Shown here: one piece after another, positions 13,001 through 42,269 of the stretch
Numbering within the stretch: the stretch's first letter is position 1
Layout of the letters: each line of letters opens with the position of its first letter
Origin: an uncultured Planctomycetia bacterium
Lineage (GTDB): Bacteria; Omnitrophota; Gorgyraeia; CAYWPX01
Assembly: GCA_964460615.1 (NCBI GenBank)
Contig: CAYWPX010000003.1
Span: forward strand, 155,028 to 219,027
Direction of reading: 5' to 3'
Length of the DNA stretch: 64,000 nt
Notes under the pieces: model-generated
What the model was told of the DNA's origin: nothing
The model's database searches: none
What the model saw: only the letters and a program-made list of their open reading frames with translations
Translations under genes and position numbers: made by a program

Positions 13001-16000
13001 ATACCCTTGCATCATCATGATATCTCTCCAAGAGATTCAACCCGCCATCTTCATATCCAGGCAAAAATTCTATGGCCAGCCTCAGTTCTTTCTTGCGCTG
13101 ATATGGCCCGCCTGTTGCGCTCAGATCTCTCTCATACGGTTTGCCTTTAGCATAGTCTTTAACTTTATAACCGTTCTCATCTACCCTGAAACCTTCTACG
13201 GATATATATGCCCCATCCCTGTCATGTATATAGGCATATACCAGAGATGTCTTTGGTACCGGTAAACCCATTAGCGCAAAGAACCTCTGTGTCATATAAT
13301 CGATCAGTATCGTATATTCATTGCCGCCTTTTACTAAATACAATTGACCTGTGTGTTCATCCTTATAGAGATCAATAGGATTGGTTGTCGGCCTTGTAGG
13401 CACCCCAAAGAACTTCTGATAAGAAAGATTCTCAAAGTCTGCCTGGGAAATCAGGTCCTGACCGTTAGCGGCTTCACTGGCAGTCTTATTGGTAATATCA
13501 GAATAATTAGCCGGATCCTCCCTATTAGATTCTAAGTCAGCGCTGATCAATCTGTATACTATAAAGACATCTATAGGTATGCCGTCAATTTCATAATTAC
13601 CAGTTGTATTAAAATAAGACCTGAGAATATCTCTCGGTCCGTTGGAGCGGATCTCTTCTCTTATTCTGATCACGTCATCGTTAATACTATTATTGATAGC
13701 CTGGAGATACACATCAAAACCCTCAGGCCTCATATTAACAAGTGCTTTTGCCGAAGCATTCCTAAGTTTGTCCCTGTCATCATCTGTACCGCTCAAATAG
13801 TCATCACCGTTCAAGGCCAGGTTTACAAGCTCTTTCCTGATATTCTCGGCAACTTCAGCGTCAATCTTAGAACCTTCGCCATAATTAAGAGATCCGATAA
13901 CATCTATCATCTGTATCTCGTTCTCCGAAGGCGCATGATTCGAGATATTTGCCACTAAAGACTCCAGTCTTTCAATACCATAAGACGACCCTATGCTCTT
14001 AAGAGTCCCGGCGGCAGCCTTAACTAGTTCAATGGTATTATCAGCTTCTGAATTTTCTAAAATATTAAGAAGAAGCGTTATTCCTCTTTCTCTTAATTCC
14101 TTGACAGAAGCATTATAGCTGGGGTTTGAAGGATCTATCAAAGGCGAATTATCCTTGATCCTACCAAGCATATCCTTAAGCACATGTCCTGCAATGGTAG
14201 TTCTGATCTGCATTCTTATATTAATGTAGTAATCGCTGTCGTATGGGAAATAAGCTTTGGCTATGTTACCATCTACATCTTCAATGATATCAAGCAGTCT
14301 CTGCATCATCGTTGGATTATTCTCAACTCTTATCGGATTTATCGCCTCGGTAATAGCCGGCCAACCCCAGAATTCTTTATCATCACCTAAGGATTTAATA
14401 CATCTATTGAACGCCATTTCCCATATACGGATATTTTTGGATTCAAGCATTTCAGTGATAATTTCTTTGGCGTTTTTCCACAGGTCTTCATCAGTGAATT
14501 TATTCTTCAGTACTCCAAATATTAATTCAAGCGCCTGCTGCCTGTAATAATTTGTCCCAAAGGTATCTTCCATCTCAAGGTTAAAATACATCCACCTGAG
14601 GTTCCACAATGTTTCTATTCTCTTGGGAAGCTTGTCGGGTGACAGATCTCTCAGTTCATTTCTGGCGGCAGTGATATATGCGCTAGCATAATTCTGAGTA
14701 GAACTACCTAACCCAACATTTTCTTCCCATTCAGAGGTTCTTAGCCCCGGCGCCATAGCCTGATAAAGTGCAAGTTTTTCATATCTAGTCAAACTCGGAT
14801 GGTTAGCAATAATAGCATCCAGCTTATCAAACCTTCCGGACCCTGAGAAATTGGAACCAGCCAAGTCAAGCCATGATGCTGGATCAGAGCTGATCAATGT
14901 TAGCGCCTCTGACATGGCATTTCTTGCCTCATTGGAGTAGGTCGCGGCGGTAAGAACCGTCAAGCTAAATAGATGCTCCCACCCATATTTCAGCCCGCTA
15001 TTATTGTATATCTCTACGAGGTATTGTTTCCTTGCAAGTTGCGTTGAGCTTGGGTTGTTTGTCACATATGTATTATATGCCTGTACAAGTGGAGTAAGCT
15101 TGTCTAATGAAATCTGATGTTTGGCTTTTACAACTGCTTTTCTTGCAGCGTCTGATACTGGTTTTGTTGCTAATACGGTTTCGATCTTTAGCATCAGTTT
15201 ATTCTGGAGGGCGACGTTGGAGGTAGAAAGAATGCTATAAACTAGATTTGGCAATTCTGAAGCCAATTTAGCAGCTAAAGCCGCGAGATCAGCACCATCA
15301 GTTTTTATTAAAGTAAGCTCTGGATCAAATAAAGAATCAATAGCCAATTCCAACCTTCCTTCATCTGTTTCTGAATGCAGGCTGGCCGCTATTTGACCAA
15401 AAAGTATATGCGATTGTTCATTATCAGCACTCAACGCCTGTTTAATAGCTTCAGGATAATTGCCTATGGCAATATGCCCATAATTAACCTGGGCTTTTAT
15501 TTCATCTATTAGATCCTTGTATTTTTCGCTTTCTGCAAAATCACCTACATTTATCGCCAGCATAATATCCAAAACATCAAATATTGGCGTCAGTATACTA
15601 AGCTTCTGAGTTATATCATTTACAGAGCTAAATGTCAGGAGATCATTGAGATTGGTTATATTAAGCCCTGCTGCTATGCCGGCAACTTCAGGATTAAATG
15701 AGGTTGTCATATTATTTCTGCCAATAAGGAGATTTCTAATAAAGTTTGTGGCAGACTGGAAGTATGTATTAGCATTTGCGCCCAATTCACCGGAAATATA
15801 TTTAGCAACTGCTTCATCAATGCTGAATTCAACTCCATATTCGGTTTCAAAGGCAGCTTTAAATGAATTGAAGTTAGTTAAACCCATAAGCCCGGACAAT
15901 TCTGCTTCAGTAAGCTTATTATTGACTTTGGAGTATAGTAAATGCCCCACAATATCATGCCACTGTCCGACGTACCTGTCAGTTGAAGCGCTGCTCATAT

Positions 16001-19000
16001 TGATCAGTTTCGCAACTTCTGAGAAGAGGTTCAGGAAACCTATATCAGTAGTAACCATTTCTTTGTCTTCTATAACAGGGTTACCATTATCATCAATTCC
16101 AGTCTGTATACTCACTGTTTCGACTTTAAAATCTGACCTATTGGCATTTACTATATCCATAAATGCGGATATAGACTCCTCAGAAACTCCCAAACTTCTC
16201 AATCTGCTTTCTATTGACGTTGTAAGAGTTGTGCTGAAATAATTGTGTACCGGCGGCTTGCCGTATGGAACCCTGGTGGCCGGATCAAGGCCTAAGGTAT
16301 CCATCATAGCATCCCTTAGATCAACAGCAAGGTTGTATTTTTCAAAAGAGTTATTGAGAACTGTATGCTTCTGTATCTCTTTTGTAAATATCTGCCAGAT
16401 ACCCTTATCCTGATACCTCACCATTTCTATAATAGCGCTTCTTATACCGTTTAATTTGGGTAATCCTACTGCATCATAAAGATCAAGGATCTTCTTGGGA
16501 TTATCTCTAAAGTTGCCATTTGCTTCGGCAAGCTCGGTAAGTTTCTTGAATTTCTCCTCAACGCTTGGGGTAGTAGTCTGAGCGCTCCCCCATGTATTAT
16601 ATTGGGCAGCAACATTATTTATATCCTTATTGGTTGAGATATTAGTAATTGCCCCCACTCCTGCTGAAATAAGCGGGCCGACAATATATGCCAGGGCATA
16701 TAACGAACCGACTACCCACGCGCCCCAGACAACTGGGTTAGTAGCATCAGTAGTATACTTGAAGATATTTCCGAACAAACCAGTTAATAGTATTACAAAA
16801 GGAGCATGACCAATAGTGCGAATAAATGTCCCGTATATACCTTTTGAATCAAGGAACTGCGATAATCCCAGGAACGGCTTCAACCAAATACTTGCTTTAT
16901 TGTATTCTTCCTGCTGTTTTGCCGTAAGATCATGAGGTACGTTGTTCCAGAAAGAAATAAGCGGGCTAAGTAAATACGCTCCTGATACTGCTATACTAAA
17001 CGGTGACAAGCTCAAAGCAGCCCAAGTCAATAAAGCACCACCAATTATTGTTGGTATCAACTCAAGATTAGCAAGGTCAGATCTCAACTGAAGCCAAGGA
17101 GTTAAAGTTGTGGTATTTCCCTTTTCATCAGTTCTAGTGTGAGTATAGCCCGGGATCAATAAAGTAATCATATCCCATGGAATTTGTAACAGATATTTAA
17201 TGGGAAGCAACTGGCTAATCTTAGCATCATCTTCTACAGAAGATGTAGATACGAATTTTGCCTTCTCGCCAAGTAATTTAATAAATGTCTCCCACATCGC
17301 CACTATTGCAAGTGCCGGATAGAATAAAGTTGAGTAGGATACAAAATTGAGCATCTTCTTAGGTGTCTTTGCCATATTAACAAAGAAAATAATAAGAGGC
17401 GACATCAACGTCAACACTGTGATAACGAGGAATTGCGGCCCCACAACACGGCCTGCCTCAAGGGGAACATATGAATCATATAATAACGCCTGTATCAGAT
17501 AGAATACGAATACGAAGTTAAGAGGCAAATTGGATACAGGCACAGTAACATCCAGTTTCTCTATGGTAGTCATCTGTGAACTCCAGATCTTACCTCTCAT
17601 GGCGTTCTTAAAGACGCCGAATAAGAACCCTGCTTCACCTGCAAGTATGCCTTTCTGGAGTAACGACATATCTCCCAGTATATTCGATACATAGTTCCAT
17701 ATCTGGCCAAAGTAACCACCTACGCTGGTAACGGTATTATGTTCCACTCCGCCGCCGCCCGTAAACAAACTCAATAAACCGAATGTCGCAGCAAAAGCTC
17801 CCAATGCCCATAAGGCATCGGTGGCTTTCTTTGTTCCGAGGAATATATAATCCCTGAAGAATTCTACTGTACCGCCGGACCATTTTTTGTGCCTTACATA
17901 GAATTGTGTGAAGTTCTCAGGGAAACCTTCCATGGCGGATACACCTCTGGCGAATACACCGTAGTTACCGTGTTTTTTCATAAACCTCGCCTGCAGAGAG
18001 AACGCCAAGTCTTCGGAAACTATTTCTGGCCATCCCTGTCCGGACCTGCCGTCATAGGAACTCCATCTTACATCTCTCCATACGCTTCTTCTGTAGAGAA
18101 CTCCATGGCCGAGAAGCATTACGAATCCGCCTTTATTTCTCGGATGCTGGTACTGGTTCCAGTGGTGGTCAACGCCCGTGCCTACCTCATCGCTGAATTT
18201 TGTCTGGATCGTAGGATCGAATACGTGATTCGACTGTACAAACGCAACCTCATCATCATAGAAGTACGGCAGCATCTCCTCAACGTAATTCTCTGAGAAT
18301 ATTTCATCCTTATCGGTTAGAAGAAGGAAGTCATCAGCATCTGTTGTTTCAGCCTGCAGTGACAGGTTCATTTGCCCTGCTTTTGACCCGCCCTCAACAT
18401 CGGATATTATTATTTCAACATCCGGATATTTTGCTCTTAAATATTCAACCGTATCAAGTAAATATTGATAACGGATCCTCTTCTTTTCATCACTAAGTTT
18501 CTTGTTGGCAAGTATACTGCTGGAAATAATTACTCTATAGTTGCCATGGTGTCTAAACGACTGATTAACAACTGATTCAAGGGCCTTTAAATTGCCTCCA
18601 TCTTTACCGGGTTCACCTATACCGCTTGACGTCGGATACAACGCAGTAACGGTCTTCCCTCTAAAATCGCTATAATTCTTTAGCGGCATATCACCCTTAT
18701 CAAAATATGACATACCTTCCACAACCCAGTTGAAAGCACCATATAACCAGAATATGCCCCAGAACGCGAATATGTTGATCAGATTGAGCTTGATCCAAGG
18801 ATCCTGTTCAGATATAAGTTTTAGTTCAGGTATAATGGTCATCGCCGCAGCGGATAATGATAATCCGATGATAGTGCCCCAGTTCCTCCAGCTCTTACGG
18901 GATTTTTCACTGGAGTTTTTGTTTTCGCCGGCTTTAATGAATTTGGATATAAATGTGAATAAGGCTCCGAGGCCGGGTATTATTTCCATATTTAACTGGC

Positions 19001-22000
19001 TTGAAGATTCCTGGGCTGTTTCAGCCAATGCCTGTTTAAGCCTCGCTATTATGCCCCTTGCTTCTTCTTTTGTAGCCTCATCAGCTGTAGCCAGATTACC
19101 TGAATCGAGCTCTCTCTCAAGATCGTCGATCATTTTCTGTGAGTCTAGCGCACCGGTATTTTCATCCGTCAAGGTTGTACCTTCTTCATTGGCTAGTTTA
19201 TTTAGGAACTTATCAGAAAGCTCTTTATAGACCTGGGCAGCTTTTGTTTTCACATCATCAGTTATACCCAGGTTATGAGCATCAAAAGCCCATCTCTGCA
19301 GAGTCGATAAAGCCGGGACAAGGAATAATTCAGAAGTAAAGTCAAGGTTTCTCAATGCTTCCATTAACGCTATTTCATAAGCAACATTTTCTTCGGTTGC
19401 TATTTCATCATAGCAATATTCGTAAATACCCGACAACTCTACTACAAGAACATCAACAGCTTTCTCTGAACCCATCTCTGCTAGTTTTTCAACATAGTGA
19501 TTTCTCAGTTCAGCCAGCTCAGGCCTTTCAGCGGCCGTTGGGTAATTGGCAATTACTATTCCGATATTTTCTATAAGCTTACCAAGGGCAATAACTGCAT
19601 CTCCCGAATCATTCTGGCCTGCATTGACTAAGAAGGTCAGTATAACTTCCCTCAGTTCTATATCGGACTTCGACCCTTCGATCCTGTTACCCATGTATTC
19701 CAAGGCATCGCTATTGAAGGCTATATTGTCAAGGGCTTCAAGTATATTGCTCTTTTGTATATTAGTGGTAGCGGCTTTGTAATAAGCAAAAGATTTTTCC
19801 AATATCAAGATCATAAGCTGTAAATGCTTCCCGCTATCCTGGGATTCATCATAAGCCTGAGCTCTTAGTACAGCTTCATTTAAAGCGTCTTTTGCCGCCT
19901 CTACTATCAAAGGTGAAGAACTATTCAGTCCATAAATGGACAATAAATCGCTTACGATGTTAGTAGTGTTCATTGTAGCGCCTGTTACGCCCAGTCTAGC
20001 CCTCGAGAGAACTTCTTTGTAAATATTTAGACCGCTCAGAGCCTTATTTGGATCGGTGCTTCTCACTCTTGCAAAGGCCTCTACTGAGATCCATTTGTCA
20101 AATTCGGCTCCAAAATCAACACCACTATTAACTGCAGCAATAATTGTATCGATCTTATTTATCATATCTGATTCGGCTGAACCCAATATTCCTCTTGCGT
20201 ATGCTATAACAAGCTCGTCTTTCTGTTCCTGCGTCAAAACATTCACATTTGGCCTTAAATTAATAATATTTAAGGCTGTTGACACATCAGTTTTAGAGAC
20301 AACCTGTATCAGGATACCGCCAATGGAAGTATTAGAGACCTTCTGTATCGTAACGCCAAGTTTAGCGGCGTTATATTCAAAAGCCTTTATCCAGAAATCT
20401 TCATTTTCGAGTGTTGGGCTGATATCATGACCGGGCCTAAAATGTATGAGCCCGCCGGCTTTTGTGATCCTGAGCGCTTCGCTTATAAAATTATCAATTG
20501 ACATCATATCAGGAGCTTCATCTTCATAATCAACAATAGAGTCTATCAATGCCAATTTATCAACCGTTGAATCACCAATACTAAGCCTGCCTTTGGTAGC
20601 ATCACCCATTGTGAACTGGGCATTCAAAGGAACTCCATTAGAAGGCAAATTCCTACTTGTAAGGCTATTCAGGAAGTCTTTAAGCTTAAGGCCCTTTAAT
20701 GTAAACGCCCTTTCAGTCTGAGGTGAATTGAGATATCTTATTAGCTTTCTCATAAGATTAAGGACTATCGGGGACTTAACAAAACCGATTACCGTGACCC
20801 CGTCCATTCTCCCGGCTGTAAGAACATCATTGCCGTCTTTTGATAATGATACGTAAAGATCTCCGGCAGTTAATGAAAGAGGGTTCAATATATCACCGGC
20901 AGAATATGATGTAGCAGACGGTTCTGACTGATCAACGACGAGCTCTTTAGCCGGTTCTCCTGTTACTATAATACCGACATTATCTATAAGGTCTTTATAT
21001 GAATTATGAGTGGATATATCAAGACCATTATAGGACTTATTCTTAAGGTAAGATTCTGCAGCGATAAACGCAATAGGATTGGTTACTGCAACGGATACAT
21101 TCTTGATCTTACCGTTATATGCTACCTCGCTGATCCACTTCATAACCGCAAGATACACATTGATATCCTCATCGGTTGAAGTGATCGGGGAAGTCGGGCC
21201 GAAGGATGAGATGTTCATATTGGAACCACTCATTGAGTATGATATCTCGCCTTTCACTACTCCATTGACAACTATGTCATAAACATTTATACCTTTTTCA
21301 ACAAGCAGTATCTGGTCAAGATCTGACTCAACAACATTTTCTATTGCAACGACTATATTGGCATCACCCTTAAGTACCACACCTTTGCCGCTTGCTATCT
21401 GAGCGTCGATCTTGGCCTTAACCTGGTTATCAGAGAGATTATAGGATATCCATGCCTGGGTAGCTTCATCAAACATCTGGATATTTTTAAGGAATCTCGA
21501 ATAAATAGCTAAGGTCGCTGAATCCAAAGCTGCAGGAAGATGGAGCTTCTTACCTTCGCTTCTTGCTATAGTAACTATCTTATTTAATTCAGTTACGAGA
21601 TCCCCGCCTATCTTATTAAGTTTGAATACCTGGACTTCATCTACCTTAGAAACATATCTTACATCAGCGTTCACAGCATCAAATGACGCCGAGTTAAGGA
21701 AGTCAGCCATATCGTTATCGCTGGCATCTTCCAAGACCATAGGTGTAGCAGTATTCTTTATAGCGTTAAATTCCGCTAGTGCAACCTGGGTTGAAGGGAA
21801 TCTTTCATTAAATGCGTTGCGCATCAAAGAAATTGCCTGCAGATTACTGAATGACGCCGCAAACTGATCGCCATCAAGACTTGGGTTACCGGCCAGATCC
21901 TTTACGGCTACCAGCGCTTCAACATCTATGATGACTACATTACCATTTTCGTCCACTCCGTAGTTATCCGCGAATCTTGTTATGTCAAGATCTACATAAC

Positions 22001-25000
22001 CGGCTGCCCATAAAGCAGTCATAAGCCTTACGACATTTTCAAGGAGCGCTTTAGCGCCTTCAGGGTCACCGTTATTTAAAAGCTCATTTGTTTTTTCATT
22101 GAGCGTTGTCACTTTATTCTGTACAAGCGCGTGGGTAATCGTTTGGGTGTGCATAACATTGGCTTCGTCTAGATAAGTAATATTCAGGTTTTCCAATGCC
22201 GTATAAGGAGCCGCTATTCCTCCTAAATATGCCTTCAAGGTCTGATATTTCTGCCAAGCGCTTGGGTCTGAAGTCATATCTTTGATTACAAAATTACTGC
22301 CATCCTTGGAATAAACAGGGTTTGTTGCCCCTGAACCCACGAGATGTAAAGGTTCGAACATATCAGTCATAGAATCAAGGAACGCTTTTCTAGCAGTATC
22401 AGTTTCAAACATTTTTACATAGTTGGCTTTGGCTTTGTCAGGATCTTTTTCAAAGTTTGCCTTGAATGACTCTCCATCAATCGCCTCAAGTGAACCTTTA
22501 ATAACCGCCAAGATATCGCCTTTTACCTTTTGGTCTAAAAGGCCGCTATTAACCATAGGAGTAAGGAGTAGTCCATCGATATAAGTTTCGGAATCCTTGT
22601 GGCTGAATCTATCCATTTCAACCGCGTCCATCTCGGTACCTTCTGCATTGAAATCATACATATGATAATCATAGCCTTTGACATCGCCTGATTCAGTCAC
22701 TCCATAATTAAGCATTCTCTTGCCGTCAAGGTCAATAATGCCCCTCTGCCACATCTTGATCTGGACATCACAGTAGCTGTCAAAAATTCTCTTTAATTCA
22801 TCATACTTTTCCTGGATAAGCTTATTCTTCAATTCCTGGTCATAAGATTCATTGTTCTTGATAGCCATAACTGCCTGGGCGATCAACTTGACTTTATCCT
22901 GTATGATCGTAAGGCGTTCCTGTGCCCTTATTTTGGTAAATGTTCTGACAACCTTTGAGCCATTGTCATTTTCAATGACAGGTATACCGGCTTCATCTTC
23001 TATATCAATGGTTCTTGCAAATATATCGCCAAGGGCTTCTTCAGTGTCTCTAAGGTGCTTTGTATCTAATCCCAAAGGATCACTATCTTCACTTACAACT
23101 TTGACTACATACTTTTCGCCTGCGATCTCAAAGACCTCGGCTTCAGCGCCGCTAGCCAGGCTTATGATCTCCCTACCGCTTTCTCTTGTGATAAATTCTT
23201 TATACTTAGCATCCATTGACACCTTTAACGAGTCAGGATCTATACCCATTTCACTAAGCTTATTTCTTAATCCCTGGTCCACGGCGCCAGCTGAAAGCTT
23301 ACCGCTCAGGTAGCCAAGAACTATGGATTTGGATTCACTCTGATATAGATCAAAGAAATTAACAACATACGGCCATGCTTGCTCCCATGCCCCTGATCCG
23401 ATCGGGCCTATAGTAGTAACACATATATCCTGCATCAACTTTAACGCATTTTCATATGACAGGCCGACAAAATCAGCTATCCGATCTTTATAGGCGGCTA
23501 TTGATTTGTTGATTTTATTCATAACGGCCTTATCGGCATTAGTAGGCTCGCCTAACAAATATTCATATGAACTTCTAAAATTGAAATCAGCATCGCCGGT
23601 CGGATAAAGGTTCACCACAAATGCTCCGCCGGTTATGCTTAATGTCCCGTCTTCAAGGACCCTTGTGATTATGTCATCCTTATCTACCTGAATATTTGTC
23701 AATATATATATAACAGACCTGTAGTATCCTCTTGCCATATCCTGATTGCCTTTAAATTCCGCAATCCTTGCAAGTGTCAGAAGTGCCAGAGCTTCGATCC
23801 TATTAAGATGGTTTTTCTGTGCCTGGAATGCCACATTTATTGCCACCATCTTTGACTTCTCGATCTCAGCCGAATCATTCCATCCAAGGTTTAGCAATGC
23901 ATTAGTAATGGCGAGATACCTTTCTATATCTGTGCTGTCAAGGCCGCCTTTCATCCAGGTAATATTATCCGGAGCAAAGAAAAGCCTTGCGCTCTTAAGG
24001 CCTTCTATATCTTTATTTCTGAGTGCTAACTGCGCATCTCTAAGCTTCAGAGAATAATACCCGCCGGCTATCTGGGCTGAAGATATCAGACCTCTTACAG
24101 CATCATTTGTCAGGTCTTTTATACCCGGGTACGCATCCGTAAATCTGACAAATGTGATCAACTGATCTATTATTTCATCATCAACCTGTTTTTTACTAAC
24201 GGCACTAAAGGCAATATTGTAATAAGCAGCTGATGTTGTTTCCTTGATCATATCAAGAAGTATTGATCTTTCATTATCAGATAAACTCACCAAATATTTG
24301 AGATCACTTATCCTGCACATGATCTCGCTCACGGCAGGATTGAATCCGGTTGTATTCAGGTGTTCTGCTTCGTGTACGAGGATCATCTTAAGGAATGCAA
24401 CCTTCTGTTCCTTTGTATAAAGTGTATTTGTAATCAGATTGATATTTATATCAATACTGGCGTCATATCCTATGCTATGGTTTGCAAAACCCAGGAAGTC
24501 AACATTTTCATAGAACCTTATTTCATCAAACATAGAAAGGTTAAATTGGCTCCCGAGCTGGCTTACCGCTTCGCTTAATAACTCACTTATTAAGCTATGA
24601 GTCGGGTCAAATGCCAGTACGCGCTGATTGATATCGTGGGTTGCCACAGCTAAGACTACCTGAGGTTTATCGGTATTTGGCGTATCTATCTCAATGCTGA
24701 AGGCCTCATTGGCAGTCACAAGAGAGAAATCGGGTATAATAGCGCCGGCATTCCTTGCTATAGCATAGTTAACCGCTTCAATAAGATATGTAGTATCAGA
24801 ATTTAGGATCAGGTTTGCATTGCCCAATGCCGCATCATGGCCCGCAAGCGGCATACCTATCGAGGCCAATAATTTAACTCTGTCCCTTACAGAATCTCTT
24901 ACACTGTTTAAGAGAGATTCTGTAATATCCGTAGCGCTCCCTGTCAATTCATCGATCGCCAATGTCAAGATATCCATTGCATCAAGCGCTGTCTGATGAT

Positions 25001-28000
25001 TATCGGGGTCTTTGGCTGCTATGATCTTTGCCACATTAAGAGCCTCATCAGCTAAGATCGTCTTTCCGTCGGCGATAGCTTTTGTCCTTATATAATTTGC
25101 AAAGGCAAGAGAATCGGTATCATTAAACACCAGGTTGGCAAGGCCTGTTTTATCACCCTTTGCTATTATTTGGATATCTGACAGCTTTGTACCTTCCGCT
25201 GCTTCAGTATAGTAGAGGTCGTCGAGATACTGAAGTGATTCGTTTATATTCTTTAAAAGAGGCCAGAAATTAACATGAGCAAAATTACTGTCATAGGCAA
25301 AGAGAACCATTGCCATTCCATAGTCGCTCAGGTTGTATTCGGCCTGTATCTGAACGAGGTCATTTACAGAAGCAAACCTGTTATTCTTTGTTTCTAGGGC
25401 CTTAATAGCGTTATTCACTCTTACTATCATGCCAAGACTTGCAATAGAAACGTTATTAGATATGAACTCGGCATTCATCAGTTCACCGTTTGCGCCATTC
25501 CCGTCCCTTAACTTCTTTATGTCTGCAATTTCTGAAGGCGTGAAAGAAAGATTAAGTATCTGATAAACCATTGTCTCCGGCAATCCTGTATCCTGAGCTA
25601 TCTTGGCTATGTCTAATGGATTAACAAGTTTAAATCCTGTTATAAGTTTTTCAACGGCGTTAGCTGCGGCAACAAGCTGAGTATTACTGGATCCCTTAAA
25701 TATTCCCAAAGATAATTTAGCAGAATCAATTAATTGTTTTCTCTTCGATTCAAGTTCGTTGATCTTGGATTCTATTTCATTGACTACGCTCTCTTCCTGG
25801 TTAGCTTTCCAGTTATTGAGATATAACCTCACCATATCGCTGGATAGCATATCTGCAAATTTGATTTCACCCTGTTTATCAGGATCGCTTATTATGCTGA
25901 GTAAAATCTGCCTTATCTGAGCATCTACGCTTCTTAACTCATTTTCAGATGCCGCAACAGGATTATTTACATTTGCTGCCAGATCAGTAATATCCAGGAC
26001 AATACTATTATCCATAGCGGATAGATTGGCTTCCGCCTGTATAAGCGCGTCATAATTGGCCACAGGGTCCATGAGGAACATTCTGGCAAACGCGGTATTT
26101 ATCTCCGCTTTTCTGGTGATATTAAGCCTTGTAGATATTTCGGTGAGCGAGAATACCTCATTTTCCGGATCACTAATATAATCAACATCGAAAGTAATGG
26201 TGTGGCTCTTTACATATTCGCTCAGATTCGCCTGGGCTTCTTCAAATTCTGCTTTAGCTTCATCCATTCTTACCTTATGGACTTCTTCGGCCTCGCCGTC
26301 TAGTTCTCTAAATGCGGCTACTAAATTTGACTGGGCAACGCTAACTGCGGCCCTAAGCTGGTCTATCTGGTACTGCCTTGTGACAAGCCTCTGCACCATT
26401 GAACTTGCCTGCATATCCTGGGTCTTGCCGGCTATAAGTGCTAAGACCTGGTATTGCGGGTTAGAGGATTTTATTATATTTTTAATATTTGTAATATTTC
26501 TTAGGTTAGCCGCTACATCACCACCGTCCCATGAAAGAACTCCGGCAAACCCTATAGCCGCTTCACCTATCATAAGGATGGCATTAACTTCATTATCTCC
26601 GAAAGTATCAAGCGATATTGCGCTCGCATCGATAAGAGCACCGATAAGATCCACTGCTTTCTTATCATCGTCGCCTGCATTTGGTATAAGGGCATCTATA
26701 ACATTAGGATCTGAGTTTATCTTATTCCTTAAGCTCATAACCGCTTTTATGAACTTCTTTGCTCCGTCAGTAACATTCTTAAGGCCGGTAGCGGGATCAG
26801 TGGTTGTTAATCCTCTTGCGTCAAGCTGTGATCTGATGGCGCTCTTTGCCTCTTCGCTAATGCCTTCCATGCTGTCAATAGCTTCATCAACTGTCTCGGT
26901 GGCAGAAATCTCAACCTTTTTCTCTGTGGACATAGGTGCCACTTTTGGAAGCATGCTTTCTGTAATACTGGCATTTATTGATTCGAGGCATTCTGATAAA
27001 CTACCCGCTAAAGCGATCGGTGTTACAGAGCTATCCGAGGTAAGGGCAAGATTTATATCTGTGGTAGAAACAGCCATGGCTTCTGCTGAAATACTGCTTC
27101 CGACAGCAGTATTGGCAATGGCTTTAAATTCATCCGAATTTGTGATAGCATTCAGGAAGTTATCGGCTTTTTCCTTAGCCGCTTTGAGGCCATCAAGGCC
27201 TGTCTGGGCATTTCCTAAGCCGATATTTGTATCAACACCGGACTGATTCTGGAAGTCACTTATGGCCTTTTCGAGGAATGAATATTCAGCTTCTGTAGAA
27301 GCAGTAGCCCTGAGGCCTTCTAAGAAATGGACTAACGATTCATCTATAGCATCTGTAAGGTGCCTGTATAATAAATTTTGTCTTTCCGTTTGTTCGTTTG
27401 CATCAATAAGAGCCATAAACTCATCTTTTGTCACTTCATTGGCAAACCCTGTCGGCGGCGCCCTTTCAGCGTCAATATGGTCAATAACTAGTGAGTGCAA
27501 AAGCGCGGCATTGGCGGCTCCATTTGAAGTCACATCATATGTAAACCTTAACTGCCCTCCGGCAAGGTCCGCAGCTACATCATCAAGGGAGATCCTGCCT
27601 TCCCTGAATGCCTGGGCATCTTCGGCGGTATAAGCATATACGAACTTTCCGCCAAGCCTTACACCCCTATCTCTATTGAGCAATTGTTCTATATCGGTAG
27701 CCTTTGAGAATTTATCTGTTATTGCATGTACTTCTACATTACCGTTAAATACAACATCTATACCTCTTGTTGCGCCAAGTGTGAACCAGAATCCGACATT
27801 ATCGCCCGGGCGGACATCCATATATTTCTTTACATCCGGGTCCTCGGCTGTTGGATTGGCTTTTTCGAAATCAATCCTGTTATGTTCGCCAAGATTAAGC
27901 CTGCCATCAACAATGTCACTGGCAGTAACCCTGTACCAGTCTTCATGCTGGCCTTTCACTATAAACACATCTCTCTTTGAAGCATCTGTCGCAGTTAACA

Positions 28001-31000
28001 ATTTTATTATGATTCCATCTCTTACTATCGATTCATCAGTTCCAACTTGTCCATTGAGGAAGGCGACACCCTTCTTGGATCCGTCAACCGTCAAAGAATC
28101 TACAAGGTTTTCTCCGCTTGCATATGTCTTTATCATGCTGTCTGTTATCTTATCCACAGCTCTCTTTGTAGTTCCCTCTACCATCTCGACAACGTTAACA
28201 CCCAGCATCATTAAAGCTGCATAAGAAACGCTGTCTAATGTTCCCGAGAAACCTGAGAACGTAGCGTCAAATTGGGCATCATACATATGGCGGATAGTAT
28301 TCATACGACTTGACCTGCGGGTTTCGCCCTGCATCTCAACATTATCCAAGTTGCCGTTCTCGCCCATTATAGATCTCATAAATGCCAGCTGTGTTGCGCC
28401 GGCAAGATACGGATCAGACTGTTGCAATCTCGGGGCTATTACGCCGTTGGCCATTACCCTGATATCGCCGGTCTCAGCGCAATAAGCGACATCCTTACCT
28501 TCAGTCTGCCTCAGAGCTTTTGCCCATCCGACTAAAGCAGCCCTGTAACCCATGATAGCAGCTTTCTGCTGGTCAGTTAGATCAAGTTTATTTACATCTT
28601 CGGCCTTAAAGTCTTCGAGAGTGACATTTCTCTTTCCTTTAACATCCGAGTTGATAGCATCTACGATACCATTCAGGACATCCACGCCGTTATTGGTCGA
28701 ACCATAACTAAGCTCACCGTCATTGAACTTAACATCAAATAACGACACATTATCTGCGGCCATATACTGGTCGTAGGTAAGATCAAGGATATTATTTTCT
28801 GAATCTAAAACTCTGTATGTAAGAAGGTTTCTTCTTATGGCGCTGATCCAAGCCATTCCTCCGTCAGTTTCATATAATGACTCTATTGTCATACCATTAA
28901 CTTCAACATTACCTATAATGGTCATCAGTCTTGATATAACGGCTTTCTGATCCTTGGTAAGTTTTGTTGTATCCTGGCCGGCTTGCGTACCGTTAGAATA
29001 GAACGAAGTATCAGCTTCATCTGATATGAAATTGGCTTTATTATAAACAAGGTTAAATGCATCCACAACCGCCTGATCCTCAGGGGTCTTTATATTTTCG
29101 CCTATCTGGTCTCTTGCCTGTACCAGGAAGTCAAGACCCTGGCCGTCAATTATCCTTACCCTGTTATTAGCAAGAGCTGTCAATACTGCCTGCCTTTTGG
29201 CCGGATCATTGCTTCTAAGCTGATGCAAAGTATCTTCGGTGAATATTGTAGAAGTAAGGCCAAATGCAGCAAGAACATCCTGTAAAGGCTGGTTCTGGAT
29301 AGTCTGGTTAAACAAATCTTTACTTGAAAGTACAAAGTTTGTCGGCCTTGTGCTATCAGCCTGGCTCATTAATACAGTAGCTATAGCAAATATGACGTCG
29401 GTCTTTCCAGTACCGGCAGGAATTCTAAAGAAATTATCTGCGCCGTTATAGGCAAGTTCTGCTATGGCACGTATAACATTTACATCATTTCTCATGCCTA
29501 TAGTAAATCCTCTCATTGCCTCTACCTGGGCTATGATCGAATTAAACAGGACTGCATTAGCTTTCTGGGCATCACTGCCGAATGATTCGTCTGCCCTGTA
29601 TTTACCGTCATTATCCTGGATTATCCTTACAGGCAAAGTATCCCAGTTAGATTCTCTTGATGTAACCTTGCCGGCATCATCAATCTTTATAACTTCAAAT
29701 ATACCGTGGCTGATGCCATTAAGCGTCTCTATGCCAGTTGCAAGCCTGATCTCCAATTCCCCTTTAGTATTTATAGACGCGCTTATCGGAGTAGCGTCTA
29801 TATCGGCATTATCAAGTGCTTTCTGGCTTAATACAGTTATACCTTCAAAAGCTTTACCTTCAGCAGTAGAAACAAATTTTCCGTCTTTTGTCCTGAATAC
29901 ATACTTTACACTTTCAGTGCCATCAGCCAGTGTTTCAGTGATAGTCTCTACCACTATCGGCTGATCAGCTATTGAAACGCTTCTCGTTACTGTGCTTCCA
30001 TTGAAGGTAGTGGTTACAGAACCATCTTTGGTCTTAGAGGTTATAGAGTAATTGCCGTTAGCATCTATCGTATTTTCCGTACTTGTGTAAACCGCATTCA
30101 ACGCCTCGTTCATCCCTGTTTCTGTAGGCAGATAATCAAAGGCATCCTGGCATGTGGAATAATCTAATGGAAGCGCATTCAGCCTTGTGGTATCGACTTT
30201 ACCTGTGTTCATAATGCTGTTTAATAGCGGCGCAACTGCATAACCAAGGGTTGCCTGGTTATTTGTATAGATATTATTTAAAGCGCTATACATAGCCTCC
30301 AGCTGGGTTGTTGAATATGAATTACCCTGATTCAACCTTCCGGTAATAGCGGTAGTAATATTGGTCATGGCATTATCAAACTGGGACTGCGTAAGGTTGA
30401 GGTCGCCACTCTGGGCAAAATAAGTAAGGTTGACAAGTAGATTACCAAGTACGTGGCTATCTAATGTAGAGATTGTCTGGCTGTTTGCCACTGCACTTGT
30501 AACAGTAGCGCATAATGTGCTTATTTTCCCTCGTATTGCCCTTGCTCTATTGCTAAGGTCTGTGCTTGCAAAAGCGCCATTAGCCAAAGCATTGTCAATG
30601 GCAACAGCTGTTTCAACTGCGTCATTTAAAGCGGCCACCGTATCGCCCATAGACCCTACGGCAAAATCAGCAGTAGAGAAACTCTGGGAGAGATTGTCAG
30701 CAAGTATAATAAGATTATTAAGAAGCTGGTTATTACTTAATACTGCTACACTTGTAGATGAATTGGTCGTAAGAGAATCGATCAAAGAACTGATAGTCCT
30801 TAAGGTGGTCAATGCATTGGCGCCATTTGCATAAGACTGCGTAGTATTGGATCCCTGGAACCGGACTATATTGGAAGCGATCCTTGATATATTGGCTCCG
30901 AGGTCATTTAAAGCCCTTTCCTTTGTGGCTTCGTCAATAGCATTCTCCTGGATAGCCCTTGAAGTCTCTATAAGGCTTGATAAGAGATTAAGATGTGTAT

Positions 31001-34000
31001 CAACATTCGTAGCATCAGTAGAGAAGTCCATATTTGCTACAGTTCTATTTATCCTTGCAGCAACAGAAACCAAATTATTCCTTGCTTCTAATACTGCGCT
31101 TTGATAAGCATTGGCTGACATAGCATCACCGGACGGCCTCGGCATACCATTGGTTAAAATGTCCAGCGCAGCCGTGGCATTGCTCAGGAGCGCTGCGGCA
31201 TTATTTATATCTATATTACTTCTTGATAAAGACGCCTGCATCTGACTTGTTATATTAACCTGCGTATTGATAAGAGTCACTTTTATAGCATCCAACTGGG
31301 CAATATTCACAGATGATAAATTTGCATTCTCAAGTGTTGCGATCGAATTTGCTACCTGGGTAATAACCTCTGAAACAGCTGAAAGCCCGTCAATACTTAT
31401 ACCGGTATTGGTTAGCCTTAAAGATCCATTGGTAATAAGATAATTGAGAGATGTCTGTATCTTTGTAACCGCGTCGTTTATAGCTGTCTGGGACTGGATG
31501 TCTCCTGAAACTCTTGCCGCTAATTCAGGAGATTTAATAGCCGCATTTATTACCTGTGCTGATTGTGCGACATTATATAACTCTCTGCCTGATTTAATAC
31601 CTTCAAACAATCTTGATGCATTTACATTTGCCCCTTCTAATTCACCACCACCGGAAACGTATTCCGCGGCATAATTAGCTATATTACCAGCAATTTTTTG
31701 GTCAACACCAAACTTCATTAGACTGTTTTGTATATAATAGCCGTATGTAGGTTCAACTATACCTTCGTCGATGACCGCTGTTAATGCCTGAAGAACGGGG
31801 TATTTTTCAGCCAAACCTTCTAATCCAAACTGACCACTTACCATCTTATTAAAATTACCAATATAGGGTATATCTCCAAGCATTCTGCTTATAGGACCCA
31901 TAGTAGGAGCTATAATAGCACCTATAACAGCGCCCTGTTGAAAAGCCTGGAGTGCTGTACCCTCGCCAAACTGGTCAAATTGCTCACTTATTGCATTAAA
32001 AACACCACCAATACCAAACGGGGCATTCTGAAAAGTTTGCCCTAAATAATTAAATGCGCCGGATAACGGCTTAAATAATCCCATTTGGCCTGCGCCCCAG
32101 AATCCAACTCCAAGCGCTCCAACTTTTAAAGAATTAAGCGCAGTATTAGCTATTGCTAATCCTGAAGTTTTCAATGCCCAGCCACCTGCGCCATCAGCTA
32201 ATGTAATACCACCCCATTTTGCCAATGTAGGCGAAGTAAGCCCTATAAGCTTGACAGTATTAAATCCGATCCCCGCTGCTGTCTGGCCAATCGATCTTAC
32301 TGAATTGGCTAATAAAGCTCCTACCTGGCCTTCAAACGACAGTGTGCCGCTTGTTCCAACAGTTGTAGCAAAATTAATAGCCAAATTTTTTCCTATGTTA
32401 ATCCCAGCTTGAAGAGCTCCGACAGCAATTCTGCCCAAAGCCTGTTCTAAGGTAGCAGTTGTAGCAAATTTTAAGGACAAATTTGTAATACCTGTTGTTA
32501 TTGCTCCTCTAAGTCCGGCTAAGGCCGCACCCACAGTAACTTGTGACGCTGTACCTGTTAAAAGTTTTATACCAGCGCCAACACCGGCAGTCATTAGTCC
32601 GCCCCAAACTACATCAACAGCTCCTGCGGCCCAAGGATTCCAATCCTTTGTCCCAATAAAACCTCTCCACTCATCCTGAAGATACTGTGTATTCACTGCA
32701 TTCATAATTGTAAGATTACGAAGATATCCAAGTTCAGCATCAGTAGTCAACCCAAAATTAAATCCTACAGTATCACCAAGGTAATTACCAAGAGCATTAG
32801 ATACATAACCAGCTTGAGACTCGGCCCATGAACCTAAAGTCAATAAACCTGTACCAAAATTCCTGAAGAAGGATGTGCCAGCCGCTAGCAATGAACTCTC
32901 TTCCCAGTCCTTTCTTCTATACTGTGTTCTCAGAGTATCTGTCATTAATTTCTTAGTCTCGCTGACGCTTAAATTTCTGTCTCCTGTAGCGCCATAAGCA
33001 TGATATTCATATCCATGCTTTTCTTCATTCCATGTTAAATTTGCAGGATTCATTCCTCCGGCAGCCAAAAGCTGAGGTATTGTGGCAGCATCGACAGACG
33101 CTGTAAATGCCCAATTTATCCCTTTCCTTCTGTTGTCATCATAAGCAAGGTCCCTAGCCTTATTTCCAATATCTAATAAATAAGCCTGACTATGCTGGGA
33201 GGCTATTTCAGACATCATTCTATTCTGCTCGGCCTGGTAATCCATTTGAGCATATTTATTATAAATAAACTGCTTAGCATCGGCACTTATTGTCCCTCCA
33301 TTCCACGCCTTTTCCATCATAATATCCATCTCAGCCTGATTCCTAAAGTAAAAACTATTCCATGCATAATTACCTGTACCGATCTGGCTTGCAGGATTAA
33401 ATAAAGATGTCCAACTGCTGGAAGAATTAACAGATGCAAGGTATTTAGCTCTAAATTCTTCGGGAGTCATTAATGTGCTGCCATCAGGGCCCATAGCTTT
33501 TAACCAGTTATTGCTTACATAATTATCATAAAGCATATCGACATATTTAGGATGCGTGGCGTATTGAGACTTTACATGCCACTTACCATTTTTATCAAAA
33601 GTCCCTGTCTGGTTCATCTTGTTTCTTAGAGCAACAATATCATTATAATTAGCACCATAGGGTTTTCCAAAGAACACAACACCGTCTGGATTCTCTTTAG
33701 CAAATTTGGCAACTATCTCAGCTTTTTGGGCGTTGATTATAGCGGTATTAAGCCTCTTACCTGCCGCATTAATAGAGTTTGACAACCCCTTAAGGGAATT
33801 ATTTAAATTATTAACACTGGTAGAAACATTATTTATCTTTTTGGCAAATCCATTTACATCGTTAAGCGATAAATTGCCGCTATATAAGGCATCTTTGAAA
33901 TTTCCCTTATACTGCGCCATTAATTGCTGATAAGAATCTAATTTATTACCCTTACTGCCGACTGACCCGATCAATGACGCAAATCTCTTGTATTCAGGCA

Positions 34001-37000
34001 AACTTCTATACTTGGCCGGTACTTTAGCCAGGGCTGCATTCAGCTTATCCTGCGATGCGCCGATAGAAGATGAAAGTTTATTGAAATTTGCTTCAAGGTC
34101 TTTAACTGCTACCATGATCTTAAGAGCCGATCCGTAGGTAAAGAACTTGGTCAATTTGTCAGCACTTCCTTCGCTAAGTGCTTCATTATAGAACGCTAAT
34201 GTCTGCCTATAGAGACTGTCTTCATTCTTAATATCTTCTCCGATCTTCGACATCGACCCGGAATTTTTGGTAAGCCAATTCTTTAGGTTAACAAGTTCCC
34301 TCTTTGTGGAGTCATCAACCGGTGAGCCATTCAAGAATAAATGGCCATTGGCTGTCCATTGTGACTTTGCACTCGGATCAAACCATGTCTTCCAGTCTAC
34401 CTTGTAACCATAGGTCGTACCATCCTCTGCTGTGATCCTCAGGACATCCTGTGACGGAATATATGTTGTCCCTTTAGTATCATTCCATAAACCCATATCT
34501 GCTAAATAGTAGAATGGGTTATTAAAATCCTGAACCACATGATTAGAACTGTCTGTCAATGAAGTTAGATTCTGAGCTTTAAACGCAATGAAATTATTAC
34601 TGACATCTTCAAATCCATTAAAATATGAGCTAGTTGCTCCGGACCAGTTATTTGCCCATATACCGCTATAGCCGTTGGTTAAATATCCGCTAGTATAATT
34701 AGCTAACATCGGATCTTGTGTACCATATTGCGTCCACGCTACAGAACGAACTTCTCCATTCTGTATAACATTGCCAGCGCCTATAGCGCCACCGGTCCAA
34801 TAATAATTACCATTAGTACTACCGCTTATTGGCGGAGCTGATGGTATACCGGCTACTGACTCAGATGATCCTGATGTGAAATTATTGGTATAGACCATCT
34901 GGGAAACAGTATCAACTAATGATTTTCCGCCATCCGTACTGTAAAATCTCCCGTCTTCGCTTAATAAGATTATCTGTCCATCCTGAGTTTCTACAGGAAG
35001 CATATTGACAGAACCGCCGCCATAAGAAGCGTCAATTGTCACACCAAAAGTCTCTTTGCCCTGGTATGGATTTGTAGAAACATCAATCGGCCTATATCCG
35101 ACCATAAAAGCATTAGTAAGATCACTAGATCCATAATTTGCCCATGGCAGATCTCCAAAAAGCGAACTTTCACTTGTATTGGTTCCAAACGGGTTATAGG
35201 CATAAGCTTCCCATCCCGTAACCTCTTCTGGGATAGGGCTTACCTGGTTAAATGTAACAGGCGGCTCGTAGAACGGAAGCGCATCTGTTTCCACATTGTA
35301 AAACCAGTCTGTTACTACCTGTTTAGAAGCAAATTCTTCCTGAGTTAATGTCCTTGCGATACCATATGTATTGGCTAATGCCTGAAGTTCTTCGTTACTA
35401 GAGGCAGATACAATAAATCTGGCATTTGTCTGCCCGTCGATCATCTGCCAATATCCGCCGCTAACAGGCGATAAGAGCACTGGACTGCCGCCTTTGGTAG
35501 GAACAGCGTAGAATCTTGAGTCATACGACAAATAATCATCAAACGATTTAGTGCTTTCATTATAAATCAATGTTACATTAGCCCCATAACTTGTAACCCC
35601 CGTATATGCATTCAAGCCCTGATTCAAAGTAAATGTTACATAATCCAGCATCCCGTAGTCTTCATCATAAACTTCCTTAAGGATAGTACCCTCTGTTAAA
35701 TCTGCATGAATGAATCCATTAGTGGAATCGAGGCTACTCCAGATCCAATGGCCTTCATCATTTGTTGTAATAAATGCATTCTTAACTTCCATTCCGCCTA
35801 TATTAAGACTATCAACTACTTGCCCTGCGGAAATCACTTCTCCCGTTAAAATATTAGTTTTGTAGTATGTCCCGCTAAGTGAGTCATAAAGATCGTATCC
35901 GGCTCTGTAATTAGGACTGGATCTATCCCATCTAAAGCTTTCAGTAGCATAATTATGCACAATGGAGTTTAATTCGGGATTAGCCTTTAACACCTGTTCT
36001 GAAACATTATACATTCCTATCAATGTTCGCCTGTTAGGATCGTTCGCATCTTTACTGAAATCAATGTTATATAAGTTTACTGTAACATTGTTAGCATCGT
36101 ACCTTGAGACCTCAGCGGTAATTGCCGGATTGCCAAATAGATCAAAATACGGGTTTTCAAATGAATTAAAGAAGGTCCCTGATAGAGACATAGAATCCAA
36201 TCCAAATTTCGATAAACCTAATGAAGGATTTAGTTCAATAGGCACTAAAGAAAGGTTTAAATTAGTCAAATCACTTGCCTTTAAAGTCTGACTATTTAAC
36301 CAGCCATTAAATCTGTTTAAAATTCTCTGAATCTTCGCGTCATTTTCCGTTTTCCATATCGTATATTGCTTCTTCCATAATTCTGTCTTCCAATTATTGA
36401 TGTCTGCATCAATAGATCTTGTAATAAAGTTTATACCTAAGAAATTAGTGACTGCTCTTATAGCCGGCTTAACGACTTTATAACTGAACCAATCGCTTAT
36501 CCCCACCCTTGCGATCCTCGTAGAGCCGTCAGGCATAGTTTGCTTTAATGGTATTATCGGTATTTCGCTTATCGCGCCCTGATAGAGATTTCTCCCGAAG
36601 GTTGACCACGGGTTAAACCCAAGATCAACATTAACACCGTATTTTTTCCAAATTTTATATTCCTGGTATTCCACCATCACGTAAGCTTTTGCGGTATCCT
36701 TTACGGCATTCCAGAATACTTTGTTATACCATTTTGCATCTGCGTCTGGGCCGGGCAGCCATTCGCTGAGAGCCGCACTTAAAAATGCCTCATCGAACGG
36801 TATCTTAAATATCCACGAATTTAAAGCCGCTGTTGCCGTCACCCTTGCAAGCGCCCACCAGAAACCAGCCCCTGGTATAAGAGCGTTTACAACGATCTGA
36901 ATAGCAATATTAATGACTATATCTTTTACGGCTTCCCATGCCTTATTGACCCATTCTCTTACAGTCGGAGATACTGCATAAGCGGTTGCCGCAACAAATA

Positions 37001-40000
37001 TAATAGCTATAAATGAACAAGCGCCTCTTGTCCTCATCATCTCTTCGCGGGACATTCTCTTTTCAGAAGTAACGCTTGCGATATTCTTGACCATCGCCTT
37101 GCCGTCCCAGCGCTGGACAAAATCCCTAAGTTTAAGCACTCTCTCAACGCCGTTTTCAATGACTGTTACGGTGTGATTATCAAGGTCTGTGGTACCGCTG
37201 ATCGCTTTTACTACCATAAAATGCTCGTCTTTGGTGTAAACAGTGATCTCACTACCTTCGACCGACAGCAACGACTGCAATTCTGTCAAAGTAAGGTTCT
37301 TTGCGCCGGCGTAGTTATTGGTGCCGGTCCTGTTTAATAGCGATCCAACAACTGACATAGAATACATGGAAATAAGCGCCTGGCTGCCTGTATTGGCAGT
37401 CATGAACCCGAAAATTATTTCTAATATCATCAGCTCTGCCGCTATGCCTACTGAAGATATATTGCCGCTTGAATATGTATAATATAATGTGTTACCGGGA
37501 GTGGTTGACGGAACATAACCAGTAAGTACTACAAGCATAGACTCCACAACGCTTCGTCCAAAGTGTTTCTGGGTAAGCGCATTTAAAGTCGCCTGCAATG
37601 TATCGGTAACATTATAGATCTTTAGTGATGAGCTGAATGACTTGATGGCATCTGCCAAAGCCACGAAGTTGCTTCCGAGGCCAGAGAAGGCTGCAGAAGA
37701 AGTGATAGACCCGCTAATAACATTGTAAATTTGAGCGAAGAATGAGGTTATCCTGCTCTTTACAGTCGCCATGAAGTTAGTATTGGCGTCATACTCAGTC
37801 TTATACCCTGTAACCGTATCAGTAGTAAGATATGTCTTTAACTGCGAAATATTCCTGGTAGCATTGAGATACTGATTCCTGAAGTTGGTTAATTCTGCGG
37901 CACCGCCGACCTCAGTCGGATATCTGCCAAGGATATCAAAGAAGACTTTTCTGATCGCCTCATCAATTGCCTTATTTAAAAGTTCAGTCTTCTTAGTTTC
38001 AGCTATACCTTTACCGTAAGTACCATTATTTATCCAGCTGCCATAAGTTGAGGTTAATGAAGAAACCCTTAAATCAGACTGGCTTTTAACCATGTTAAAT
38101 GCATCTAACCAGGCAGAATAGCCGGTAGTAGAAGTTAGGGAGGAAGTTACTCTGTCAGTCCTTGATCTATCGCCTGAAGCATATTCCCATATAATGTATG
38201 GAAGGTTATCTATATTGCAATTAAAATATGTGAAAAGCTTTGTAAAATATTCCAACTCTTCTATCGAGCCATCTCTTGGGGTAGTTAAAAAACCGCCTTT
38301 TCTGAATATATTGTTATTTATTAAATAATCCCTGATCCTGTAAGTATCGCCGATAATATCGGTATTGGCTCTAAGCATAATATCAGCGGTAATCTTTGAC
38401 CATGAAATGTATGGAGGGCCAACTATGGACTTAATGTCACTCAGAAGATTTTCCTGAATAAGATTCCTTATAGACGGGTCTGTAACAATAGAAGCATTGA
38501 TTGTCGCGATCCAGCCGGGAGTACTCTTGTTAATCGTTATAAAATCTGAAGTGGTGGGAGCTGATGGGAAATATATTACGGAATATCTAAGGTATTTATT
38601 GTATAAGTTTACCAGTTTCTCAAGGGTCAGGTTATAATATTCTTTTGTAAATACCTGGTAAGGATAATTGGTTGTATTCGAAAGGTCGCTATAGTTACCG
38701 AAAGACGGGCCGAAGAAATCGGAAATATAATTAAATGACTGCGCCAATTCAGCGGCTGTCGGCGCCCTGCCGAGGAAAAGCTTGTAAATAGCGTCTATTA
38801 TAGTAGGCTTATCTGCTGCTTCAGGCTTTACTGTATTAGTAAACGTAAGCGACGGCATCTGCGTCTTATCTTCCACGCCTTTATATTCAAAATACCACGG
38901 CTTAGAAGGAGTGCCAATCCCCTGTTGATTCGGATTAAGGACCGTAAGATATATGCCAAACTGAGGAGTGTGATTTGTTGTTATGACTGTTGTCTTATCG
39001 GCCTTAACAACACTGTAAGCAGTGCCACCCGATGTTTTCCACTGTGTCCAGTCTTCGCCATAATTATACTCATATTCCAATCCAAGGGTTTCGCCGACAC
39101 CATTATTATATAAAGCCGAAAAATATACATTCTTGGATGACGGCATATCCTGAATACGGGTATCAACTTTATAATCAGTAACGGTTTTTGTAATACTCTT
39201 GTTGCTGAAATTCATCGGCACGCCGCCGGTAAGCGAATAATTACTAAATCCTATTTCTGCATTAACACCCGGAGTCCATGTCCCGATATTCCCATTAGCT
39301 ACCCATGGGTTAGCTGCGATTTCTGAGCCATAAAGCTGATACATAGCCGGTATCGCATAATCAAGCCACGGCTTAAGGCTGTCTTCAGAGTGCCCTCCCT
39401 CAGTAAGATTTTCATCATCCATAAATTCTGAATATGCCTTACTGCCTACACTGTCTAGTATTGACATATACCAGTTATAGAAGTCAGCGCTGAAATCGCT
39501 TATTTCAACCGACTTGGATATCATGCCATCAACAGTATCCCTCACATAATAGGTATCGGTTGTTGTCAGACCATATGTTTCTATCTCTTTAAATCCGCTG
39601 TATCTCTTTACTCCGCTTATTATGATCTTATCAACTTCAACTCCGGAAGCAAAGGCCAGGTCATACGGTTTTGTTGTATCGGTGATATTTACGGGATAAG
39701 TCCCGACCGGCGCGCCTGCCTTATAAAGAGTTACTGTAACTGTCCCCATCGGCTGTGCCAGGATATTTGTTCCATACAACCTCAGGAGGTTAATCTTTCT
39801 TGTCGAATCCCATATCATCCTGATTTCTGAATTGTCTACATTAGAAGCCCATGCGCCCATCCACTTTCTTGTGGCTAGGGAACCATCTATCACATTACCG
39901 CCATAATACGCATTGTTAGAATCTGAGTAGAAGCTTGATACCTCAACTTTGGCAGTCTTTGCCATATTTACACCGGCGTTACAGACTTCTTTTGTTGCCT

Positions 40001-42266: not shown

Positions 42267-42269
42267 CTA
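42267..42269 (-). other. Single in-frame TAG inside a YD-repeat (…ITTYNIYGDM-TAG-SVQDKNGRKTYYKNFRDSKGDLIKRYEK…)
   Basis: Verified by reverse-complementing 42181-42281. The same frame and repeat register continue on both sides. The next in-frame ATG is 166 codons downstream (41769-41771). Confidence 0.9.

Follow-up and report, generated by a model that had tools for sequence, protein, structure and literature searches.

A highly diverged SecA-type motor domain probably forms an internal part of an Omnitrophota giant membrane protein

Giant-protein SecA_DEAD and SecA preprotein-binding domains have already been described in Omnitrophota; they are without scaffold and wing, occur close to transmembrane regions, constitute a long-branched clade separate from housekeeping SecA and co-occur with N-terminal C39 peptidases, and a role in the giant protein's own export was proposed for them (West-Roberts et al., 2023, 10.1101/2023.11.21.568195). 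Among long Omnitrophota proteins, a PF07517 architecture group (20 proteins) and a C39 group (24 proteins) have been reported (10.64898/2026.06.07.730766). Here we examined a 64,000-nt stretch of DNA (hereafter the window) from contig CAYWPX010000003.1 of an uncultured bacterium of the Omnitrophota lineage, in which an earlier note had placed a SecA-like preprotein-translocase motor inside a giant open reading frame (ORF). The segment at 27540-29660 is, in our assessment, a SecA-type motor with high likelihood. As a whole, and with an export role included, the best explanation is probably that of a highly diverged SecA motor homologue that lies, as a single internal domain, within an Omnitrophota-type giant membrane protein.

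The window matches the published description of Omnitrophota giant proteins in all respects compared, save that its motor is invisible to the Pfam SecA models. As in the set of West-Roberts et al., the motor lies within a gene of tens of kb that encodes transmembrane segments, and it comprises a motor and a preprotein-binding-type insert with no scaffold or wing (an absence judged by sequence only). The giant protein likewise has a C39 peptidase near an N-terminal signal anchor, together with glycosyltransferase, TSP3 and lectin domains, and the family is extremely divergent, all its named relatives being Candidatus Omnitrophota. Unlike the published domains, which are recognised by Pfam SecA_DEAD and SecA_PP_bind, the window motor and 14 relatives go unrecognised. 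Because PF07517 detects the published domains and not the window family, the latter may be a separate, more diverged branch from the Pfam-detected giant-protein SecA_DEAD domains. The export or injection machine suggested in the earlier note is not a new idea, the same having been proposed in 2023 (West-Roberts et al., 2023); the window represents a new, more diverged and hard-to-detect case, and the picture published then is unchanged.

The motor and its landmarks are as follows (q numbering, with q1 at window position 29660; frame B is the giant reading frame that contains the motor).

27540..29660, minus strand: SecA-type motor, q1-707, frame B residues ~4203-4909; NBD1 with an inserted PPXD-like domain, then NBD2
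29475..29498, minus strand: GMRNDVNV ahead of Walker A, by alignment the counterpart of SecA GMRHFDVQ (E. coli residues 80-87)
29400..29423, minus strand: Walker A (motif I), IPAGTGKT (SecA MRTGEGKT); G85 and K86 invariant
29010..29021, minus strand: Walker B (motif II), DEAD; D214, E215 and D217 invariant
28263..29015, minus strand: PPXD-fold insert of ~250 aa between motifs II and III (fold of the SecA preprotein cross-linking domain)
28380..28493, minus strand: SecA-like return path from the insert, by alignment; hairpin DVAYCAETGDIRVMANG (SecA DVDYIVKDGEVIIVDEHTG), then APRLQQSDPYLAGATQLAF (SecA GRRWSDGLHQAVEAKEG)
28236..28259, minus strand: motif III, FSGFSGTL (SecA LAGMTGTA); G470, G473 and T474 invariant
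27591..28235, minus strand: NBD2, the second RecA-like domain; R632, D635, Q659, R663, R665 and G666 invariant
27753-27779, minus strand: motif V within NBD2, LGATRGIDV
27663-27686, minus strand: motif VI within NBD2, QLLNRDRG

Conserved sequence and confident structure delimit the motor at ~27540-29660. The range given before, 27600-29540 (frame B residues 4242-4888), is indeed coding and on the minus strand, but the folded domain is slightly wider. The diagnostic SecA motor motifs were all recovered in the correct order on retranslation, including the motif VI string QLLNRDRGVRLGGKFVYAYTAED, and the Walker A lysine and the DEAD residues were kept, as the earlier note had read them. Motifs I, II, III, V and VI of superfamily 2 (SF2) are intact across the RecA-RecA core. 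When 14 sequences with ~25% identity to the query were aligned, the columns that never vary (P81 and those listed above, K86, D214, E215 and D217 among them) nearly coincided with the catalytic residues. Invariant catalytic columns at this level of identity indicate that the motifs are real, conserved and under constraint. Since every ATP-binding and hydrolysis residue, the arginine-finger residues included, is strictly conserved, the motor domain is very probably an active ATPase. Motif II reads DEVD, as in SecA, in 8 of the 14 relatives. A long N-terminal helix precedes GMRNDVNV, again as in SecA, and the arginine and final glutamine of this segment are kept in most relatives, the window copy having V in place of this glutamine.

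AlphaFold2, given the 14-sequence alignment, modelled the 707 residues with a mean pLDDT of 79. When the model was compared with the PDB by Foldseek, ranks 1-7 were occupied by SecA or SecA2 (E 2.8e-8 to 9.1e-7), placed above DdmD, XPD, DinG and RIG-I-like helicases, and SecA was top-ranked in both structure searches; structure prediction thus bore out the SecA-like motor that had been claimed from the letters, and the reading frame around it, at least 14,088 codons long, is a giant one as stated. In a structure search with the insert alone, a SecA-containing chimera was the sole match, and neither an Arch domain nor a helicase accessory domain was found. Collinearity with E. coli SecA, at comparable spacing, holds for eleven SecA sequence landmarks. 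Besides the pairs listed above, they include FVLSSKDL (E. coli SecA HVVTVNDY), AAFGLTS (EFLGLTV) and GQGLDFL (EYGFDYL), and several are SecA-specific landmarks beyond the helicase motifs, namely GMR..V.Q, FGL, GxDFL, the hairpin and the return helix. No block of the family is better conserved than the return path, which in the model is predicted to form strands at 391-394 and 399-404 and a helix at 417-432.

The window motor shares with canonical SecA (E. coli b0098; B. subtilis 1TF2/1TF5) the order NBD1, PPXD between motifs II and III, and NBD2, and the landmarks DEVD (in most relatives), GxTGT, AxRGTD and QLxGRxxG. It differs in the length of the insert (~250 aa against ~155 aa) and in having no detected helical scaffold, two-helix finger, wing or C-terminal tail. 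Canonical SecA is a free, soluble protein of ~900 aa, whereas the window motor is internal to a membrane protein of at least 14,088 aa. The accessory SecA2 of M. tuberculosis (PDB 4UAQ) is also a free protein and keeps the helical scaffold, unlike the window motor.

Twenty-six relatives of the motor (19 at E<=1e-10) came out of an exhaustive HMMER scan across 1.84 billion cluster representatives; every one is a stretch of a large protein or a fragment of such a protein. All those with a source name are proteins of 1,600-7,800 aa from metagenome-assembled genomes of Candidatus Omnitrophota. The nearest of the relatives (66% identity) bears the annotation 'DEAD/DEAH box helicase family protein'. 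In two relatives (P0008 and P0011 in the Walker A column of alignment A1) GGGKN replaces GxGKT/S, with DEAD and the motif VI arginines retained; these copies may bind ATP and hydrolyse it poorly. A word-indexed homologue search returned no match with either the segment or the 14-sequence alignment, though the relatives sit in the same collection. We concluded that for families as diverged as this one only the exhaustive HMMER scan detects relatives.

Several results weigh against a SecA motor that acts in export. The Pfam search for the SecA families named in the earlier note failed: no SecA_DEAD (PF07517), SecA_PP_bind (PF01043) or SecA_SW match was found at E<=1 for the segment or the 14 relatives, and the segment gave only sub-threshold ResIII (E 4e-4 to 8e-4, under the gathering score) and faint DEAD matches. 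Searches of PDB sequences by phmmer with the single sequence and with the family profile yielded only weak P-loop matches to Brr2 and RIG-I, and no SecA match was obtained with the single sequence, the family profile or the insert profile. A hidden Markov model (HMM) of SecA built from 81 proteobacterial SecAs, a shallow profile spanning 60-95% identity only, matched neither of the two giant ORFs nor any relative. Whole-model TM-scores in the Foldseek search of the PDB were low (0.3-0.38), and the SecA2 chain 4uaq_A, which also bears a PPXD, was absent from the top 60 structure matches of the insert. No scaffold, two-helix finger or wing was found in the motor flanks (Pfam, SecA_SW; amino acid sequence being the sole basis), which leaves the motor without the canonical elements for SecY docking and pushing, and a conserved module of ~430 aa that follows the motor shows, at hhalign P 0.26, no resemblance in profile to SecA residues 580-901, the C-terminal third of that protein. 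The membrane topology, finally, comes from a crude Kyte-Doolittle hydropathy scan.

The assignment of the motor to SecA rests on the predicted fold, not on sequence profiles. Identity to canonical SecA is ~10-12%. In the 14 family members Pfam found ResIII in 11 and DEAD in 10 (best E ~1e-6), and NCBIfam, PHROGs and PADLOC gave no family above cut-off for the segment. When the family profile was aligned with the SecA profile by hhalign, the two were collinear (20-691 against SecA 49-582) with P 0.0029; in control alignments, reversed SecA columns gave P 0.5 and eight block-shuffles gave P 0.008-0.06. The SecA signal is therefore real but small, and it stems mostly from the stretch between Walker A and motif Ib.

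The module that stands in place of the SecA scaffold and wing was delimited by phmmer tiling and alignment.

26262..27542, minus strand: conserved module of ~430 aa, frame B residues ~4909-5335, directly after the motor

It is common to the window protein and nine relatives, and its conserved blocks in the alignment with them are R.PP.G, LY..L.D..ES.V.FLE.L, FQN..G.D.N..LGTAQSG..GL and LP..AP. Tiling against the relatives showed that conservation in frame B is restricted to residues ~4071-5335, that is, the motor and this module. It has no Pfam match. It is the best candidate for a replacement of the SecA docking domains.

The motor belongs to the following setting.

3..42266, minus strand: giant reading frame B, at least 14,088 codons without a stop (six-frame stop scan and translation); the C-terminus lies past the window start
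42270..62459, minus strand: giant ORF A, 6,730 aa, the adhesin-like 'cargo' part, in the same frame as frame B
36876..37451, minus strand: three transmembrane-like hydrophobic segments upstream of the motor, frame B residues ~1606-1797 (Kyte-Doolittle scan)
16677..18548, minus strand: GT2 domain, then ~five transmembrane-like segments, frame B residues ~7907-8530 (Pfam Glyco_trans_2_3, E 1.8e-14, and hydropathy)

In the six-frame stop scan the plus strand of the window has almost no long ORF. The G+C content is ~0.41 and the GC skew is negative throughout, as expected for a single long minus-strand gene. ORF A and frame B are divided by one TAG only, at 42267-42269 (context 41067-43469), which falls within a YD/RHS-type repeat unit, the stop standing between ...TTYNIYGDM and SVQDKNGRKTYYKNFRDSKGDLIKRYE...; YD-like repeats run on either side of it, and the nearest ATG past it is 165 codons downstream. 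The two look like parts of a single gene, at least 20,819 codons long and carrying a TAG in frame, rather than two genes, and the candidate explanations for the TAG appear to be sequencing error, recent pseudogenisation, readthrough and recoding. Protein scans of genome and metagenome contig collections and an exact 44-mer search found no closer locus. In the hydropathy scan the motor sits between the hydrophobic cluster at 1606-1797 and the GT2-associated one at 8151-8530, with one weaker segment at 5227; several relatives likewise have hydrophobic clusters upstream of the motor.

That the motor works in the export of the giant protein is a tentative proposal. The motor would be cytoplasmic, on a stretch flanked by two transmembrane-helix clusters, and because of this position it could be tethered by its own polypeptide, whose membrane helices would take over from the scaffold, wing and C-terminal tail with which free SecA docks. 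As ATP drives the cleft between NBD1 and NBD2 closed and open, a PPXD clamp gripping an unfolded polypeptide would shift, and the motor might in this way help the extracytoplasmic segments of the giant protein, its own or those of other copies, across or into the membrane. The partner channel would probably be the ordinary Sec channel of the cell; secY and the housekeeping secA lie outside the window. Ahead of the motor ~4,200 residues of frame B are made, or ~11,000 if the TAG is read through, and export in cis of its own N-terminal adhesin part would require that part to wait unfolded. Because the motor lies ~11,000 residues from the N-terminus in the read-through case, action on downstream loops, or in trans on nascent copies, is more plausible than export of its own N-terminal part.

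A bolder proposal, which we consider improbable, is that the motor and the ~430-aa module, anchored by the transmembrane helices on either side, make up a translocation unit complete in itself, which acts in cis or between copies without the SecA scaffold and finger, and perhaps without SecYEG. If true, such a unit would be a new kind of protein-export device for the surface display of adhesins of more than 20,000 aa, and as a corollary, giant proteins scored as SecA-less in Pfam surveys may all carry a cryptic motor.

The main rival explanation is that the domain is derived from SecA but has been repurposed, as a non-secretory cytoplasmic chaperone, unfoldase or conformational switch that is driven by ATP and works with the ~430-aa module. 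It owes its rank to the missing finger and scaffold and to the new downstream module: the parts by which SecA docks on SecY and pushes its substrate went undetected, and another conserved module follows the motor in nine relatives. The motor also leaves the ribosome long after the N-terminal extracytoplasmic part, the branches are very long, and the Walker A of two relatives reads GGGKN. Nevertheless we regard repurposing as doubtful. The PPXD clamp, the part of SecA that grips the polypeptide, is kept, its return path is the block conserved best, and membrane segments flank the motor region. Mycobacterial SecA2 (PDB 4UAQ) acts in export and has no wing domain.

It is distinctly unlikely that an ordinary SF2 nucleic-acid helicase or translocase (DEAD/DEAH, ResIII or DinG/XPD-like) was fused into the giant protein and resembles SecA only through the shared RecA-RecA core. 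The motif set and this core are indeed common to the window motor and the SF2 helicase superfamily (DEAD/ResIII), and the NCBI annotation of some relatives as helicases is in line with such an origin. The PPXD result makes a plain nucleic-acid helicase less likely, the insert having matched the SecA-containing chimera and no Arch or helicase accessory domain. SecA also topped the two structure searches, collinearity extends to the SecA-specific landmarks that are not helicase motifs, and no defence-system helicase was matched. The window motor further differs from XPD/DinG and DEAD-box or ResIII helicases in its lack of Fe-S cysteines, its PPXD-type rather than Arch insert and its setting in a giant membrane protein. 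A single Cys occurs in the 707 residues, and two relatives lack Cys altogether, so an Fe-S cluster is absent; an XPD/DinG-type helicase was ruled out on this ground and because the insert is not Arch-like. A defence-system helicase was likewise rejected, given the absence of a PADLOC match and the giant-protein setting.

Chance matches to motifs in a long, compositionally ordinary ORF with no real ATPase domain, to which the non-significant E of 0.3 in BLASTP against E. coli SecA (from NC_000913; the best local alignment was nonetheless the correct Walker A-DEVD stretch) and the empty word-indexed search might point, have a negligible probability and are refuted by the HMMER relatives, the invariant residues, the AlphaFold2 model and the structure searches.

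The remainder of the giant protein carries few recognisable domains in frame B and more in ORF A. Besides GT2, the frame B matches above the Pfam gathering cut-off in 14,088 residues are the following two.

11532-11822, minus strand: PHP phosphoesterase domain in frame B (Pfam E 3e-7)
40053-40493, minus strand: DUF7402 domain in frame B (Pfam E 1.5e-7)

A C5-epim_C match was sub-threshold (E 9e-4, 19.2 bits against a cut-off of 23.3), and more than 90% of frame B is without a domain recognisable by Pfam. The cellulose-synthase-like GT2 domain and its hydrophobic segments (16677-18548) suggest a membrane-embedded polysaccharide synthase module in the same polypeptide. ORF A begins with a signal-anchor-like helix after RRR and contains a TSP3 repeat, FKBP, C39 peptidase, a beta-helix, LamG lectin and RHS/YD repeats. 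Its FKBP-type prolyl isomerase (E 1e-19) and C39 peptidase (E 7e-8) domains, at 58824-59765 on the minus strand, lie ~900-1,200 residues from the N-terminus, past the signal-anchor-like helix; this suggests a built-in foldase adjoining a processing protease and agrees with the N-terminal C39 pattern in the literature. A separate ORF of 411 aa, located upstream of the giant gene (62746-63981, minus strand), encodes a lectin domain of LamG/concanavalin-like type (E 3e-21), the type also present inside the giant protein; an exact look-up of this ORF in the public gene index gave no match.

The chief lead in the literature on how cells as small as Omnitrophota produce, fold and export polypeptides tens of thousands of residues long is a SecA-type motor built into the protein. 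The motor of the window is so diverged that standard domain libraries label it a weak ResIII/DEAD helicase at best; since the Pfam SecA models miss the family, Pfam-based surveys would score the window protein as motor-less, and the reported frequency of such motors in giant proteins is probably an underestimate. The strong constraint on a SecA-specific clamp and on all catalytic residues argues for a real polypeptide-handling ATPase.

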